A DNA stretch of 52,257 nt from Candidatus Kaiserbacteria bacterium. GTDB taxonomy: Bacteria; Patescibacteriota; Minisyncoccia; Phycocordibacterales; UBA2100. A program made the translations under genes and the position numbers. Shown here piece after piece: positions 5,265-26,046 of this stretch. The DNA lies in NCBI GenBank assembly GCA_028286585.1, contig JAQBRI010000001.1, positions 1-52,257 of the forward strand. The letters run 5' to 3'. The notes beneath the pieces are model-generated. The model made no database searches. It saw only the letters and a program-made list of their open reading frames with translations, and was not told the DNA's origin. Each line of letters begins with the position of its first letter. Position 1 is the first letter of the stretch.

Positions 5265-8200
5265 ATGACTACACCAATAAAGAAAAAAGACTCGATCCCG
5301 ACAAACTTTGATGCGGTTACCATGCGTCTCGCATCTCCTGAGCGTGTTCTCGACTGGAGTTGGGGAGAAATCACCAAGCCAGAAACAATTAACTATCGTA
5401 CACAGCGGCCAGAAAAGAACGGACTCTTTGACGAGCGAGTGTTTGGTCCTGAAAAGGATTACGAATGTTACTGTGGTAAATACCGCGGTATTCGTTTCCG
5501 AGGAATTATCTGTGAAAAGTGTGGCGTTGAAATCACACGTGCAATCGTACGCCGTGAGCGCATGGGTCACATCGACCTTGCTACACCGGTCACACACATC
5601 TGGTTCTTGCGTGGTATTCCATCACGTATCGCTCTCATGCTCGGACTTTCTGCAACAGATGTAGAAAAAGTGGTCTACTTTGCTGGATACATTGTTATCT
5701 CGGTCAACGAAGATGAGCGCAAGCGAGTACTCAAAGATCTTGAACTCGAACTCTCAACCAAGTCTAAGTCAGCTGCAACCGACGAAGTGCGTACTGAACT
5801 TAAAGAAAAGGCACAAAAGGCAAAGGGCGAAATCGAATCAATTCAAAAGGGCGTCGTTCTCGACGAGGCGGCATACCACTCCTACGCTGTTAAGTACGGT
5901 GCAATATTTCGAGCTGCAATCGGAGCTGAGGCACTTTATAATATTCTCAAAGAAATCGACCTTGGTGCATTTGTAAAAAATGTACGTGAAGAGTTCGAGA
6001 AGTCAGGTGCAGCAGATCGCGACAAGCTTCGTAAGCGTCTTGCGCTTGCAGAATCACTTCAGCGTTCTGGCGTACGTCCTGAATGGATGTTCCTTACCCG
6101 ACTTCCTGTTGTTCCACCGGCACTTCGCCCAATGGTTGCGCTCGAGGGCGGACGACATGCTTCGTCTGATTTGAACGACCTCTATCGTCGTGTCATCAAC
6201 CGTAACAACCGCCTCAAGCGATTGCTTGCAATTCATGCACCTGAAGTTATTCTTCGAAACGAAAAGCGTATCTTGCAGGAGGCAATCGATGCTCTCCTCG
6301 ACAACTCAATGCGTCGTGGCGCAGGAGTAGCTGGTATTCTTGGCGGACGCCGCCGTGCACTCAAGTCACTTGCTGATTACCTTAAGGGTAAGCATGGATA
6401 CTTGCGTCAAAACCTCCTTGGTAAGCGCGTTGACTACTCTGGCCGATCGGTTATCGTTGTCGGTCCTGATCTTGCGCTCGACGAGTGTGGACTTCCAAAA
6501 CATATGGTCTTGGAATTGTTCCGACCATTCGTTATTCAGGGTCTTCTTTCTCGTGAACTCGCGTTTAACATTCGTGGAGCAGGACGTCTTATCGAAGACG
6601 AGGCACCAGAAGTATGGCCAATCGTTGAAGAGGCAATCAAGGGCAAGTATGTTCTCTTGAACCGCGCACCAACACTCCACCGTCAATCTATCCAGGCATT
6701 CCGCCCAGTTTTGATCGAAGGAAATGCTATCCAAGTACACCCACTCGTGTGTCCTGCATACAATGCGGACTTCGACGGAGATGCTATGGCTGTGCACGTT
6801 CCGCTTTCTGAAGCTGCTCAAATGGAAGCACGCAAGATCATGTCTGCTGCAAAGAACATCCTCAAGCCAGGTTCTGGTGACGTGGTTGTTGCATCAAAAC
6901 TTCTCGACATCGTGCTCGGCTGTTACTGGATGACAAAAGAAGTTCCAGGACTCAAGGGCGAGGGAAGTGCATTCCCATCAACCAATGCCGCTATTACTAC
7001 ACACGACTTTGGCGGTATCGACCTTCGTGCAAAAATCAAAGTGTTGCCAAGTGAACACGCTAAGTATGCTCAGTTCGAAGGCAAAATCTTTGAGACCACT
7101 GTTGGACGACTTCTCTTTAACTCGGTACTTCCACAGGACTTCCCATACATCAACGAAGAAATCACCAACAAGCGCATGAATGCGATGATTCAAAATCTCG
7201 TCGTTCACTACCAACTTGACGGTATTCCTGCGATTCTCGACAAGATCAAGAAGTTTGGATTCCGATACTCAACATACGCTGGTATCACATGGTCAATCTC
7301 AGACGTGCTTGTTCCAAAGGAAAAGGAGGCACTTATCGAAGAAGGTCGCGCAGCAACTGCTCGTGAACAGGAAAACTTTGATAACGGACTTTTGACCAAC
7401 GAAGAACGACGTCGAGCAACGATCGAAATTTGGGCGAAGACTTCGGTTGAATTGCGTAAGCATGTTATCGAGGCTATCGACGAAAACGGACCAGTGCATG
7501 ACATGATCACGTCTGGCGCCCGAGGTAACCAGGCTCAGCTTCACCAGATGGCTGGTATGAAGGGTCTCATCACCAACCCGCGTGGAGAAGTTATTGAATT
7601 CCCAATTACATCATCTCTTAAGGAAGGGCTTACACCGATCGAGTACTTTATTTCTACTCACGGAGCTCGTAAGGGTCTTGCGGACACAGCGCTTAACACA
7701 GCACGTGCCGGATACCTTACACGTCGTTTGTTCGACGTTGCTCATGACGTAGTTATTCTCGAAGCAGATTGTGGAGCAAAGGACGGTATCGTCATCAAGC
7801 GCCCAGGAAAGGAAAACATCGGAGGATCATTTGCAGACCGACTTCATGGCCGCGTATTGCTCGAAGATTGTATGGACGGAGATACAGTTGTCCTTAAGCG
7901 TAACACAATGATTCGTCGTGATGATGCCAAGGCGATCGAAGACAGTGGAGCAATTGAGGCATCGGTACGATCTCCTATGGTTTGTAAAGTTGCACGCGGA
8001 GTTTGTCAGAAGTGTTATGGTATGGACTTGTCCAACAGTGAACTCATCGACCTTGGAGAGGCAGTAGGAGTAGTCGCTGCACAAGCTATTGGCGAGCCGG
8101 GTACACAGCTCACTATGCGTACTTTCCACACAGGAGGCGTTGCTACAGCAGGCGGAGACATCACTATGGGTCTTCCTCGTGTTGAAGAAGTATTTGAAAC

Positions 8201-21736: not shown

Positions 21737-22615
21737 ATGAACTTGGAATCTGGATTCACCAGTCAGCATAGATCTCCTGAATTAGGTGACACTATGGAAC
21801 ATGAAATCGATACGATTATCGACGATCTCCCTTCAGAAATCGGAAAAAAGTGGTCAAAACGTTTTGAGGATTCGTCGCATGCCGAGCTGCCGCATCTGCT
21901 AAAAGAATTAAAAGTTTTTTCTGAAAAACGCAATCATGCACTTACAGCAATGCCGTCTACATTTGAGGGGAGCAAATACCGGGTACAAGATGCCGAGGCA
22001 ATTAGAGAAACGTTGAACGAGATAGAGGGTCGCGACGACCTATTTATCAATGATGGCAAAACTGCTCATGTGTTTCTTGCAATGAAAGAAAACGAAAAAG
22101 GATTGTGCTACAAACTGGTGCACAATTTTGAAGAATACCAGGCATGGAACTCTATTGGTAAAGAAGCGCGGTTTCTTGAAATCCTTGAGGATTTGAATGT
22201 TGATGGTGCGCGCGTGCCGGTTATATCGCGATTCATCGACTTGCCCGACAACAAGGCAATTGTAATGGAATACATCAATGGGCCGAGTATCGACCAGTAT
22301 GTGCATGGTCATGGACCTGCCGTTGAGGATTTTAACTTGGAAGTCTTTATGAAAAAGCTCGAGGCATACATTACGGCAATGCATGAGCGAAATATTTTTC
22401 ATCGTGATTTGCATGCGGGTAATGTATTGATTGGTGCAGACAGTACACCCTATATTATCGACTTTGGACGGAGCACCATGGCGTTTAATCAAGAGACCGC
22501 CTATGAACATTGGGACACCAGCGGACAAATTCGGATCATTCTCAAATCGGACGATGACTACCTGAGGGACATTAGGTCGAGTCTACAGCAATTTGTGAGT
22601 CAAAAGAGCCAATAG
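21737..22615 (+). CDS. Protein kinase-like fold protein (RIO/Kdo-type minimal kinase)
   Basis: Catalytic loop HRDLHAGNVLI and IIDFG (DFG) motifs, with upstream GKTAHVF...CYKLV resembling a Gly-loop and Lys. Start may be the ATG at 21794. Confidence 0.65.
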   Translation: MNLESGFTSQHRSPELGDTMEHEIDTIIDDLPSEIGKKWSKRFEDSSHAELPHLLKELKVFSEKRNHALTAMPSTFEGSKYRVQDAEAIRETLNEIEGRDDLFINDGKTAHVFLAMKENEKGLCYKLVHNFEEYQAWNSIGKEARFLEILEDLNVDGARVPVISRFIDLPDNKAIVMEYINGPSIDQYVHGHGPAVEDFNLEVFMKKLEAYITAMHERNIFHRDLHAGNVLIGADSTPYIIDFGRSTMAFNQETAYEHWDTSGQIRIILKSDDDYLRDIRSSLQQFVSQKSQ

Positions 22616-24333: not shown

Positions 24334-24465
24334 TGATCAAGTATATCAGGCTGGTGCGGCTTAAACAGAGGAAATATTTTATGCGACGCTCAAATGTGCG
24401 GTAGCTTGTGAGTACACAACTACACTTCTATTTTTCTAGACAGAGTACTGTCTGTAAAATATGGG

Positions 24466-24552
24466 CGGAGAGGGAGGGATTTGAACCCTCGATTCAGTTA
24501 CCCGAATGCCGGTTTTCGAAACCGGTGCCTTCGACCACTCAGCCACCTCTCC
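24466..24552 (-). tRNA. tRNA-Ser (anticodon CGA)
   Basis: The minus strand reads GGAGAGG...CCGGT-TTCGAAA-ACCGG-(long variable arm CATTCGGGTAACTGAATC)-GAGGG-TTCAAAT-CCCTC-CCTCTCC-G. Length 87 nt; a class II tRNA. Confidence 0.92.
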
Positions 24553-24554
24553 AA

Positions 24555-24590
24555 TGACCCGACACGCGATATATTGCGCGTCTCGGGTCA
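24555..24590. repeat. 36-bp imperfect palindrome abutting the tRNA-Ser 5' end
   Basis: TGACCCGACACGCGATAT/ATTGCGCGTCTCGGGTCA. By eye, 15 of 18 arm positions pair. Confidence 0.7.
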
Positions 24591-24751
24591 ACCGTTACTA
24601 AATTGACGCAACGGTGTAAATCAAAAAGATCTATGCCAGCGTCTAAGGTAACACATTTTATTTGATCGCTCCACCATTGTGGTAATGGTAAGTTGTGTTT
24701 GTGTACTAAATATCCTATCCTAAATAGAGGATCTCGATCAGGGAGAACATC

Positions 24752-25366
24752 ATGGATTTGCCCCTCATACCGCCGATTATAGTAAAGACGCTCACAAAGC
24801 CATTCGACGACCCGGAGTGGTCATTTGACCTCAAATACGATGGCTTTCGCGGTGTTGCCTATATTCAGAGTGCTGACGGCAAGATCATTTCGCGGGAAAA
24901 TCACCGGCTTTCGCGTTTTACGCCACTCGAACAAAAGCTTCCCAAGGTTCTCGGAGTCACGGATGCAATCTTTGATGGTGAAGTTGTTGTGTTCGACGAA
25001 TCAAAAAAATCGATCTTCAAGGAAATGCTCCGAACAATCTATGAACCAACGTATGTTGCGTTTGATTTGTTGTGGCTAAATGGCGTCGATCTGCGCGAAC
25101 TTCCGCTTTTGGAACGCCGCCGCAGACTGCACAAATTGCTTGCTAAAAAGGACGAGGCAATTCAGGAGGCTTTCTCGGTACCTGGGCGAGGAATTGCACT
25201 GTTCGATAGCGTTTGCAAATACGATTTCGAAGGCATCGTTGCAAAAAAGCTTTCATCTCCATATCGCAAAAAGGTAGAATGGTTCAAGATCAAAAATCCC
25301 GAGTATTCTCAAATGCCGAATCGCTCCAAGATCTTTAACGCAAATCGCACCCGTTCAAAAAAGTAA
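24752..25366 (+). CDS. ATP-dependent DNA ligase-like nucleotidyltransferase domain protein lacking an OB domain (204 aa)
   Basis: Motif I FDLKYDGFRG (KxDG, Lys28), motif III FDGEVVVF, motif IIIa YVAFDLLWLNG, motif IV EGIVAKK, motif V WFKIKN. The stop falls about 20 aa after motif V. RBS GGGAG upstream. Confidence 0.75.
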   Translation: MDLPLIPPIIVKTLTKPFDDPEWSFDLKYDGFRGVAYIQSADGKIISRENHRLSRFTPLEQKLPKVLGVTDAIFDGEVVVFDESKKSIFKEMLRTIYEPTYVAFDLLWLNGVDLRELPLLERRRRLHKLLAKKDEAIQEAFSVPGRGIALFDSVCKYDFEGIVAKKLSSPYRKKVEWFKIKNPEYSQMPNRSKIFNANRTRSKK

Positions 25367-25390
25367 GGCCGCCCCAGAGGCGGCCTTTTT
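25367..25390 (+). terminator. Intrinsic terminator directly after the ligase-like gene
   Basis: GGCCGCC-CCAGA-GGCGGCC followed by TTTTT. Confidence 0.8.
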
Positions 25391-25487
25391 GTAAGGTACT
25401 TTATTTTATCCTCAAATTGAGGTATAATACCGAAACTTCTACTTCGAATATCACTGAGCTTTCGCATCAGGGATAGAAGTAAAGAAG

Positions 25488-25559
25488 GGCCCCATCGTCT
25501 AACGGTTAGGACGCCGGCTTTTCAAGCCGTTAATCGGAGTTCGATTCTCCGTGGGGTCA
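25488..25559 (+). tRNA. tRNA-Glu (anticodon TTC)
   Basis: GGCCCCA-TC-GTCT-AACGGTTA-GGAC-G-CCGGC-TTTTCAA-GCCGT-TAAT-CGGAG-TTCGATT-CTCCG-TGGGGTC-A. Confidence 0.9.
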
Positions 25560-25617
25560 CAAAGCTAATTGTAATCAAAATGAAGATTATAAAAAATAAC
25601 AATCAAGTATCATCTAT

Positions 25618-26046
25618 ATGCCGAACAGCCAAAACAAAGTTCTTTTATTACAAGACTATATGCTTAAAGAACATGGGTTTGCACTATCTTCTCATCAGGC
25701 AGAATCAATTATAAATTCTCTCGCTCACTCCGCGACAGTTACGGACGTTGAAAATTGGGAAGGTAAAGAATATGTTATACAGGGATTTGGAAACGGCGCT
25801 ACGATTTTAATAAACGGAAAAGATATAACGGGTAATTTGGGCAACATAACATATGGAGACAAAAGCCCAATCATTAATGGAAGCTCAAACAATATTTCCT
25901 ATTCAGAAAGTAGTCAAAATTTACAGGAAAATAATCCTATTTCTGAAAGCGCCTGGTATCAAAGACCAATAGGCATTCTTTTTCTAATGATAGTGGGTGG
26001 CTTAATTATTGCGGCAATTGTCTATCGACTTGGCTGGAATCATTAA
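25618..26046 (+). CDS. Hypothetical tail-anchored protein (142 aa) in a visibly AT-rich segment
   Basis: C-terminal TM helix IGILFLMIVGGLIIAAIVY. Asn/Ser-rich middle region. No known motifs. Confidence 0.5.
   Translation: MPNSQNKVLLLQDYMLKEHGFALSSHQAESIINSLAHSATVTDVENWEGKEYVIQGFGNGATILINGKDITGNLGNITYGDKSPIINGSSNNISYSESSQNLQENNPISESAWYQRPIGILFLMIVGGLIIAAIVYRLGWNH

Follow-up and report, generated by a model that had tools for sequence, protein, structure and literature searches.

A LigD-type nucleotidyltransferase without an OB domain, encoded between two tRNA genes of a Candidatus Kaiserbacteria bacterium, belongs to a conserved family of short proteins

The gene between tRNA-Ser and tRNA-Glu

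We describe a single gene in a 52,257-nt stretch of Candidatus Kaiserbacteria DNA (contig JAQBRI010000001.1, positions 1 to 52,257; hereafter the window) and the 204-aa protein that it encodes, P0001. P0001 is the adenylyltransferase (nucleotidyltransferase, NTase) domain of a LigD-type ATP-dependent DNA ligase and nothing else. The OB domain that accompanies this domain in DNA ligases is missing, and a family-specific basic tail stands in its place. P0001 is an intact member of a conserved, OB-less, LigD-derived NTase clade and not a broken gene. The features of the locus are listed below; fractions give the number of sequences in a 110-sequence family alignment that carry the residue.

24752..25366, plus strand: coding sequence of the 204-aa OB-less LigD-type nucleotidyltransferase P0001, with an ATG start and the stop codon included
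24740..24745, plus strand: Shine-Dalgarno-like AGGGAG, six bases 5' of the ATG, read from the sequence
24833..24850, plus strand: motif I, KYDGFR, with K28 as the predicted adenylylated lysine (K28 109/110, D30 108/110, G31 and R33 110/110)
24974..24988, plus strand: motif III, DGEVV, from D75 (D75, G76 and E77 each 110/110)
25052..25075, plus strand: motif IIIa, YVAFDLLW, from Y101 (F104 and D105 each 110/110)
25229..25246, plus strand: motif IV, EGIVAK, from E160 (E160 and G161 109/110; A164 and K165 110/110)
25280..25297, plus strand: motif V, WFKIKN, W177 to N182 (W177, K179 and K181 each 109/110)
25298..25363, plus strand: basic C-terminal tail PEYSQMPNRSKIFNANRTRSKK, family-specific, in the place of the OB domain
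25365..25392, no strand assigned: terminator-like hairpin AAGGCCGCC-CCAGA-GGCGGCCTT followed by a T-run, overlapping the stop codon
24554..25487, no strand assigned: 934-bp spacer between the divergent tRNA-Ser(CGA) and tRNA-Glu(TTC) genes, the insertion site of the gene
24462-24553, minus strand: tRNA-Ser(CGA)
25488-25560, plus strand: tRNA-Glu(TTC)

A first-pass annotation, made from the letters of the window alone, had placed the gene between tRNA-Ser and tRNA-Glu and had recognized motifs I (Lys28 in KYDG), III, IIIa, IV and V in order, a reading frame that ends about 20 residues past motif V, and a strong terminator at the stop. The translation and the tRNA coordinates bear all of this out. 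The C-terminus lies 22 residues beyond N182 of motif V, and the stop codon is overlapped by a hairpin with two perfectly complementary 9-bp arms (25365-25373 and 25379-25387), a 5-nt loop and a following TTTTTG. The hairpin 3' of the gene is a real terminator hairpin. A consensus terminator scan reports it (25365-25392) for the minus strand only, and the plus-strand T-run was read from the sequence; with an A-run on one flank and a T-run on the other, the hairpin looks bidirectional. No space is left 3' of the gene for an OB domain.

The domain content of P0001 was established with Pfam and NCBIfam models, an AlphaFold2 model and Foldseek, all of which point to a LigD-type NTase domain and agree with the earlier suggestion of a ligase-like NTase domain without an OB domain. 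PF01068 (DNA_ligase_A_M) matches residues 13-181 over profile positions 12-204 of 204 (E 2.8e-22; 79.9 bits against a cut-off of 26.2). TIGR02779 (LigD ligase) matches over profile positions 5-186 of 302 only, at 140.3 bits against a cut-off of 227.75, and this confinement indicates that the OB half is missing. Two further models remain below their cut-offs, namely TIGR02776 (123.2 bits against 373.2) and the capping-enzyme model PF01331 (25.4 bits against 29.6). P0001 has no match to PF04679 (OB), to PF09414 (RNA_ligase, Rnl2-like) at E <= 1, or, in a search of the protein, to PF13298 (LigD phosphoesterase). By family profile the best solved relative is the ligase domain of Mycobacterium tuberculosis LigD (1VS0, 6NHX, 6NHZ), over NTase residues 21-188 only. 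The AlphaFold2 model, built with 110 homologues, has a predicted local distance difference test score (pLDDT) of 88.6 and a predicted template modelling score (pTM) of 0.84, with low confidence in the last ~15 residues. Foldseek matches this model to NTase domains of DNA ligases, including M. tuberculosis LigD (6nhx/6nhz/1vs0) and archaeal ligases, in both cases with a TMq of 0.76, and the top 50 matches are all DNA ligases.

The LigD ligase domain is thus the best match to P0001 by sequence, profile and fold. The two share motifs I-V with the same spacing, together with an N-terminal lead-in of the form P-x-x-P...W-x-F-E-x-K-x-D-G-x-R. P0001 differs in that it lacks the OB domain and motif VI, carries a C-terminal tail of its own and belongs to a separate clade, and in that neither a polymerase domain (in the protein or the genome) nor a Ku gene accompanies it. 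P0001 does not qualify as a LigD protein, be it by score cut-off, OB domain, Ku or polymerase module. Nor does it fit the published definition of DNA ligases, according to which all of them share a two-domain NTase+OB core (Williamson and co-workers, PMC8455567). Neither Pfam, NCBIfam nor PHROGs holds a dedicated model for OB-less proteins of this type, and full-text searches of the literature, which leave subscription journals aside, turned up no description of an OB-less LigD-type family.

A conserved family of short nucleotidyltransferases

Among proteins of 112-357 aa, 817 homologues of P0001 were found. The best 120 share 46-53% identity with it and are mostly 197-230 aa long, and the longer entries among them carry N-terminal start-codon extensions or unrelated, Pfam-free C-terminal run-ons, never OB domains. 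Proteins of 358-2000 aa yielded only canonical LigD-like matches with PF04679, which reach at most 125 bits and 40% identity, whereas the short homologues score 195-228 bits. When 1.84 billion cluster representatives were searched exhaustively with a profile, 664 matched at E <= 1e-30, and the best 150 of these (>= 160 bits) are all 328 aa or shorter. The ESM Atlas likewise contains several clusters of 188-216 aa in which PF01068 is the only Pfam domain held in common.

We refer to this clade as S1, a label of the present analysis for proteins of about 200 aa that end past motif V and carry the tail motif Y-S-Q..G-R..L-F-N. S1 comprises at least 150 clusters at 50% identity and extends over several phyla and phages; its hosts include uncultured Acidobacteriota, Alphaproteobacteria, Latescibacterota, Gemmatimonadota and a few Patescibacteria, and several metagenome-assembled genomes (MAGs) hold two copies. 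P0001 scores 289.7 bits against the S1 clade profile. Fourteen residues of the nucleotidyltransferase motifs (K28, D30, G31, R33, D75, G76, E77, F104, D105, E160, G161, K165, K179 and K181) are each present in 108-110 of the 110 aligned sequences. Beyond motif V, about 90% or more of the aligned sequences share a tail motif, N-P-x-Y-S-Q-x-E-G-R-x-x-L-F-N: Y185, Q187, R191 and F195 are each found in 95% or more of them, and S186 in 88% (97/110). The tail of P0001 keeps Y185, S186, Q187, R191, F195 and N196, substitutes N for G190 and I for L194, and is basic, with six K/R and one D/E.

The first-pass annotation had considered a truncated relic and had advised a search for equally short orthologs. 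The relic does not hold up: the nearest homologues are all about 200 aa long and form a large conserved clade, and OB-bearing relatives reach no more than 40% identity. Full-length, OB-bearing orthologs in close relatives, which would have spoken for truncation, were not found; the congeners are without the gene, and the sole congeneric homologue belongs to another clade. A recent truncation is ruled out by the short nearest homologues, the lack of downstream room and the lack of any OB remnant. We hold this part of the explanation, which concerns the identity and the evolution of P0001, with high confidence.

Phylogeny was inferred from 93 NTase regions using an IQ-TREE quick search, with branch support from the Shimodaira-Hasegawa-like approximate likelihood-ratio test (SH-aLRT). 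S1, including P0001, is set apart by a branch whose SH-aLRT support is 100%; the S1 side holds 40 S1 rows and one 373-aa open reading frame (ORF) whose extension is Pfam-free. A second short clade, S2, is also 100% supported and is nested among OB-bearing LigD sequences. A third position on the tree, beside OB-bearing Sinorhizobium phage ligases, is taken by gp43 of Burkholderia phage BcepIL02 (262 aa, NTase only). On this tree the short state requires three changes, and the approximately unbiased (AU) test rejects a tree on which all short forms make up one clade (p = 0.017), the group having been named after the tree was seen. That the OB domain was lost repeatedly and lastingly, each time at the same domain boundary and for the most part in mobile elements, speaks for a selectable function of the NTase-only protein. 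Like P0001, gp43, its homologue in phage DC1 and the S2 proteins are LigD-type and NTase-only (209-262 aa), and they are phage-borne; unlike P0001, they belong to separate lineages with ~30-35% identity to it and lack the S1 tail motif.

The S2 proteins were seen as 209-226-aa NTase-only products on IMG/VR temperate-phage contigs of 12-216 kb (L093-L129, ORFs ~6001-6612). A tyrosine integrase is often encoded a few genes away, and tail-assembly or DUF1353 genes are found nearby; the conserved S2 neighbours reflect only the relatedness of the phages. The gp43 gene of the cultured phage BcepIL02 (L135:2839-3627), annotated as a putative DNA ligase, lies between TerL and a restriction endonuclease/methyltransferase pair.

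Insertion site and genomic surroundings

The host genome (885 kb, 20 contigs, 94% complete) encodes LigA. Ku (PF02735), the OB domain PF04679 and the LigD primase-polymerase domain (Prim-Pol; PF21686) have no match anywhere in it. The earlier remark that no partner for non-homologous end joining lies near the gene is correct and, for Ku and the LigD polymerase, extends to the whole genome. A stand-alone OB-fold ORF, which had been suggested as something to look for, is likewise missing as far as PF04679 genome-wide and a hidden Markov model (HMM) of the LigD OB domain across the window can tell. A genome search with PF14743 carries no weight, its control having been silent.

A homologue of any kind occurs in one of 24 congeners and, among the other families of the order, in one of 16 genomes. 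The congeneric one (genome G020, contig C3, L009:1474-2415) is a canonical 313-aa NTase+OB ligase with 34% identity to P0001, at another locus and in another clade. Accessory ATP-dependent ligases of both architectures have been gained sporadically in this genus. Of 400 genomes sampled across the phylum, 89 contain an ATP-ligase NTase; every one lies in a frame of 260 aa or longer, and the top score is 134.7 bits, compared with 289.7 bits for P0001; by these scores and frame lengths, S1 was not found in the genomes sampled. A separate scan found S1 members in five Patescibacteria MAGs.

The divergent tRNA-Ser(CGA)/tRNA-Glu(TTC) pair is present in at least 17 congeners, where the two genes are 64-490 bp apart. 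In eight of these, checked by BLAST and ARAGORN, the spacers measure 137-488 bp, as opposed to 934 bp here. A conserved pair with short spacers elsewhere and a gene in the 934-bp spacer of this genome indicate a one-gene insertion. Horizontal transfer brought the gene in alone, with a ribosome-binding site and a terminator of its own, a clean insertion into the tRNA-pair spacer of a streamlined bacterium. At 46%, the G+C content of the gene matches that of the window (45.5%), so that either the insertion is not recent or the donor was of similar composition. In the protein-coding flanks of the tRNA pair there is no synteny with the eight congeners, which marks the region as variable.

Two repeats were noted in the spacer. 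A 14-bp inverted repeat (93% complementary, 8-nt loop; window positions 24555-24590) adjoins the 5' end of tRNA-Ser, and an imperfect 20-nt direct repeat (75% identity; 24648-24667 and 25391-25410) flanks the gene and its terminator. The latter could represent the edges of the insertion or could be due to chance in AT-rich DNA.

The tRNA neighbours are an insertion site and not a functional link: tRNA genes occur in one of 15 family loci scanned, there ~2.4 kb from the ligase gene, and adjacency to tRNA genes is no family trait. On longer contigs, S1 genes lie in phage-like regions, near an AAA_24/Sipho_Gp157/SSB recombination module, Uma2 nucleases and HNH genes. Other S1 loci adjoin tyrosine integrases, HTH_Tnp_1, AAA_25 or toxin-antitoxin genes, and some S1 genes stand alone amid metabolic genes. 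A PADLOC search gave no match to defence or anti-defence models, and a known defence system was rejected on that basis.

Work with a partner or on another substrate was the other option raised in the first-pass annotation. The surroundings bear on a split ligase, in which the NTase would act with an OB-fold protein supplied in trans. An OB domain is normally required, and a natural arrangement in trans exists, as the trypanosome RNA-editing ligase REL1 gets its OB fold from KREPA2 (PMC4366279). In addition, the SSB protein seen in S1 phage contexts is itself an OB fold. An OB HMM that we built from 117 LigD OB segments picked up the OB domain in 39 long-form loci. It gave no match in the window, nor closer than ~6 kb to any of the 80-odd short-family genes of S1 and S2, which rules out an adjacent split OB gene of the LigD type, though a generic OB-fold partner is conceivable. 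Together with the genome-wide absence of PF04679, the lack of a conserved S1 neighbour and the arrival of the gene here on its own, this leaves the split ligase improbable. REL1 and RNA ligases such as T4 Rnl2 resemble P0001 as covalent nucleotidyltransferases without an OB domain in cis, but their place is elsewhere in the superfamily, and their substrates are RNA.

A stand-alone Prim-Pol gene was sought near the short-family loci with a further HMM, and in the genome with PF21686; none was found, and a nearby partner of this kind was rejected. Three proteins of 565-570 aa (P0390, P0392 and P0395) are fusions in which an S1-type NTase, complete with the tail motif, is joined to a LigD primase-polymerase domain and no OB domain is present. 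They score 234-247 bits against the S1 profile, share a conserved ~90-residue linker between the two domains, and are encoded on integrase- or DUF2958-bearing elements (loci L166:3885-5591 and L167:8001-9698); a structure model of P0395 has a pLDDT of 38. Judged from these domain matches, they look like an OB-less 'LigD' architecture. The fusion ties S1 to DNA-end chemistry and not to RNA or protein substrates.

An RNA ligase for RNA repair, for example tRNA repair as a phage counter-defence, is accordingly a poor candidate, and we consider it still less probable than the split ligase. It would account for the weak PF09414 (RNA_ligase) matches of many family members, for the phage-related context and for the place of the P0001 gene between two tRNA genes, and RNA ligases naturally lack the ligase OB domain. 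Set against this, P0001 is without the PF09414 match, it has LigD and other DNA ligases as its neighbours by sequence, profile and fold, the called genes of the contexts examined include no polynucleotide kinase/phosphatase partner, adjacency to tRNA genes is no trait of the family, and one subgroup is fused to a DNA primase-polymerase.

Among cultured plasmids no example was secured, as the matches checked are either canonical NTase+OB proteins (~295 aa) or a broken fragment from Methylibium. The latter, on plasmid RPME01 of Methylibium petroleiphilum PM1 (L169:4049-4597), is a 182-aa 'hypothetical protein' that represents a ligase NTase fragment: a stop codon just before motif I DGYR removes the lysine, and the frame ends directly past motif V. 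It adjoins umuD and a Y-family polymerase gene.

Proposed activity, and minor observations

Our best explanation joins membership in the OB-less clade to a role as an accessory enzyme, and as a whole we put its probability at roughly 55%. P0001 would bind ATP and form a Lys28-AMP adduct. The AMP would then be passed to a 5'-phosphate DNA end, and nicks or breaks would be sealed or at least adenylylated. In this role P0001 would be an accessory enzyme for DNA transactions of mobile elements, beside the replicative LigA. The basic tail, perhaps with self-association or a generic DNA-binding partner, would supply the contacts to DNA and to the leaving group that an OB domain usually provides. That P0001 has a real ligase or adenylyltransferase activity on DNA seems to us slightly short of an even chance. 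S1 is, on sequence grounds, a new variant of ligase with a predicted activity. A stronger proposal makes the S1 proteins genuine polynucleotide ligases that need no OB domain for any of the three steps, with the tail (R191, F195) replacing motif VI and the DNA bound by the tail or by dimerization; we regard this as possible but rather unlikely.

Several points weigh against an active enzyme. Truncation experiments on model ligases indicate that adenylylation and DNA clamping depend on the OB domain: deletion of the OB domain or of motif VI is reported to abolish adenylylation by Chlorella virus ligase, and the isolated NTase domain of T4 Rnl2 is reported to be incapable of step 2. Full ligase activity is therefore not to be assumed for P0001, and by analogy an OB-less protein may be catalytically crippled. 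No neighbour that would hint at a pathway is conserved across S1 loci, as judged from all-against-all clustering of up to five genes per side, with crude gene calls in GC-rich loci. The tail is modelled as a helix (residues 191-203) at low confidence (pLDDT 45-58), and its derivation from known OB elements found no support. MAFFT puts R191-x3-F195-x3-R199 in register with the LigD motif R-H-P-x-F-x-G-x-R; a comparison of the tail with motif VI using hhalign gave a score of 6.3 against a column-shuffled null of 6.3 +/- 1.8, and a comparison with the first OB strand (GFTEPEGSRKTF) gave 8.9 against 6.5 +/- 1.4, neither of which is significant.

No other sequence in the alignment is as divergent as P0001 itself. 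Among the 87 columns with 90% conservation or more, P0001 departs at 18 (median 2), the G85-R86-P87 loop and G190 among them, and the absence of the gene from nearly all relatives makes it dispensable. Both observations would suit a decaying remnant, a non-functional leftover in this genome even if the family at large is functional. We think this very unlikely, the least probable of the alternatives considered here: the frame, ribosome-binding site and terminator are intact, the changes are mostly conservative and alter no catalytic residue, the shared G+C content suggests long residence without decay, and the fold is confidently predicted.

A further alternative is an AMP-transferase or blocker, which would self-adenylylate, 5'-adenylylate ends without joining them, or act as a decoy on ends or nicks, and thereby protect the DNA of the mobile element or interfere with host repair. 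The isolated NTase domains of T4 Rnl2 and T7 ligase retain partial activity, and partial reactions are all that such domains of other ligases keep. A position near integrases and among the accessory genes of prophages would agree with this reading, as would the lack of an OB domain to encircle the DNA. However, all step 3 residues are conserved as in true ligases, the fusion to a LigD polymerase domain suggests productive repair, and there is no defence or anti-defence match. We give it about the same low standing as the split ligase.

Returning to P0001 as an accessory enzyme, a further comparison is with minimal ligases (Chlorella virus ligase, Lig E and Bsp-lig of Burkholderia pseudomallei). 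Like S1, these are small and accessory, some are phage-derived, and they have no extra DNA-binding domains; they differ in keeping both NTase and OB domains, where S1 has the NTase only. S1 is a large and diverse natural family that is without the OB domain yet keeps every catalytic residue, and at least two further OB-less lineages exist in phages. If active, S1 proteins would be the smallest ligases known, a useful minimal scaffold and informative on what the OB domain contributes. Should they perform OB-free three-step ligation, an NTase domain with a ~20-residue peptide would make the smallest natural DNA ligase (~200 aa), the universal requirement for NTase+OB would be overturned, and mobile elements would have got there at least twice independently. 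If S1 proteins are inactive in sealing, they would point to an unrecognized use of ligase adenylyltransferase chemistry by mobile elements. In either case, the database labels 'LigD' and 'ATP-dependent DNA ligase' overstate what is known of S1.

Two other proteins of the window were noted. Directly past tRNA-Glu, a 142-aa ORF (25618-26046) encodes a product with a hydrophobic C-terminus and no Pfam match; its G+C content is 36.6%, and 30% at third codon positions, markedly below the surroundings. Elsewhere in the window, a 292-aa protein (21737-22615) contains a Ser/Thr protein-kinase-like domain (Pkinase, 54 bits, with ABC1/RIO/APH-like matches as well), in a genome of ~0.9 Mb.

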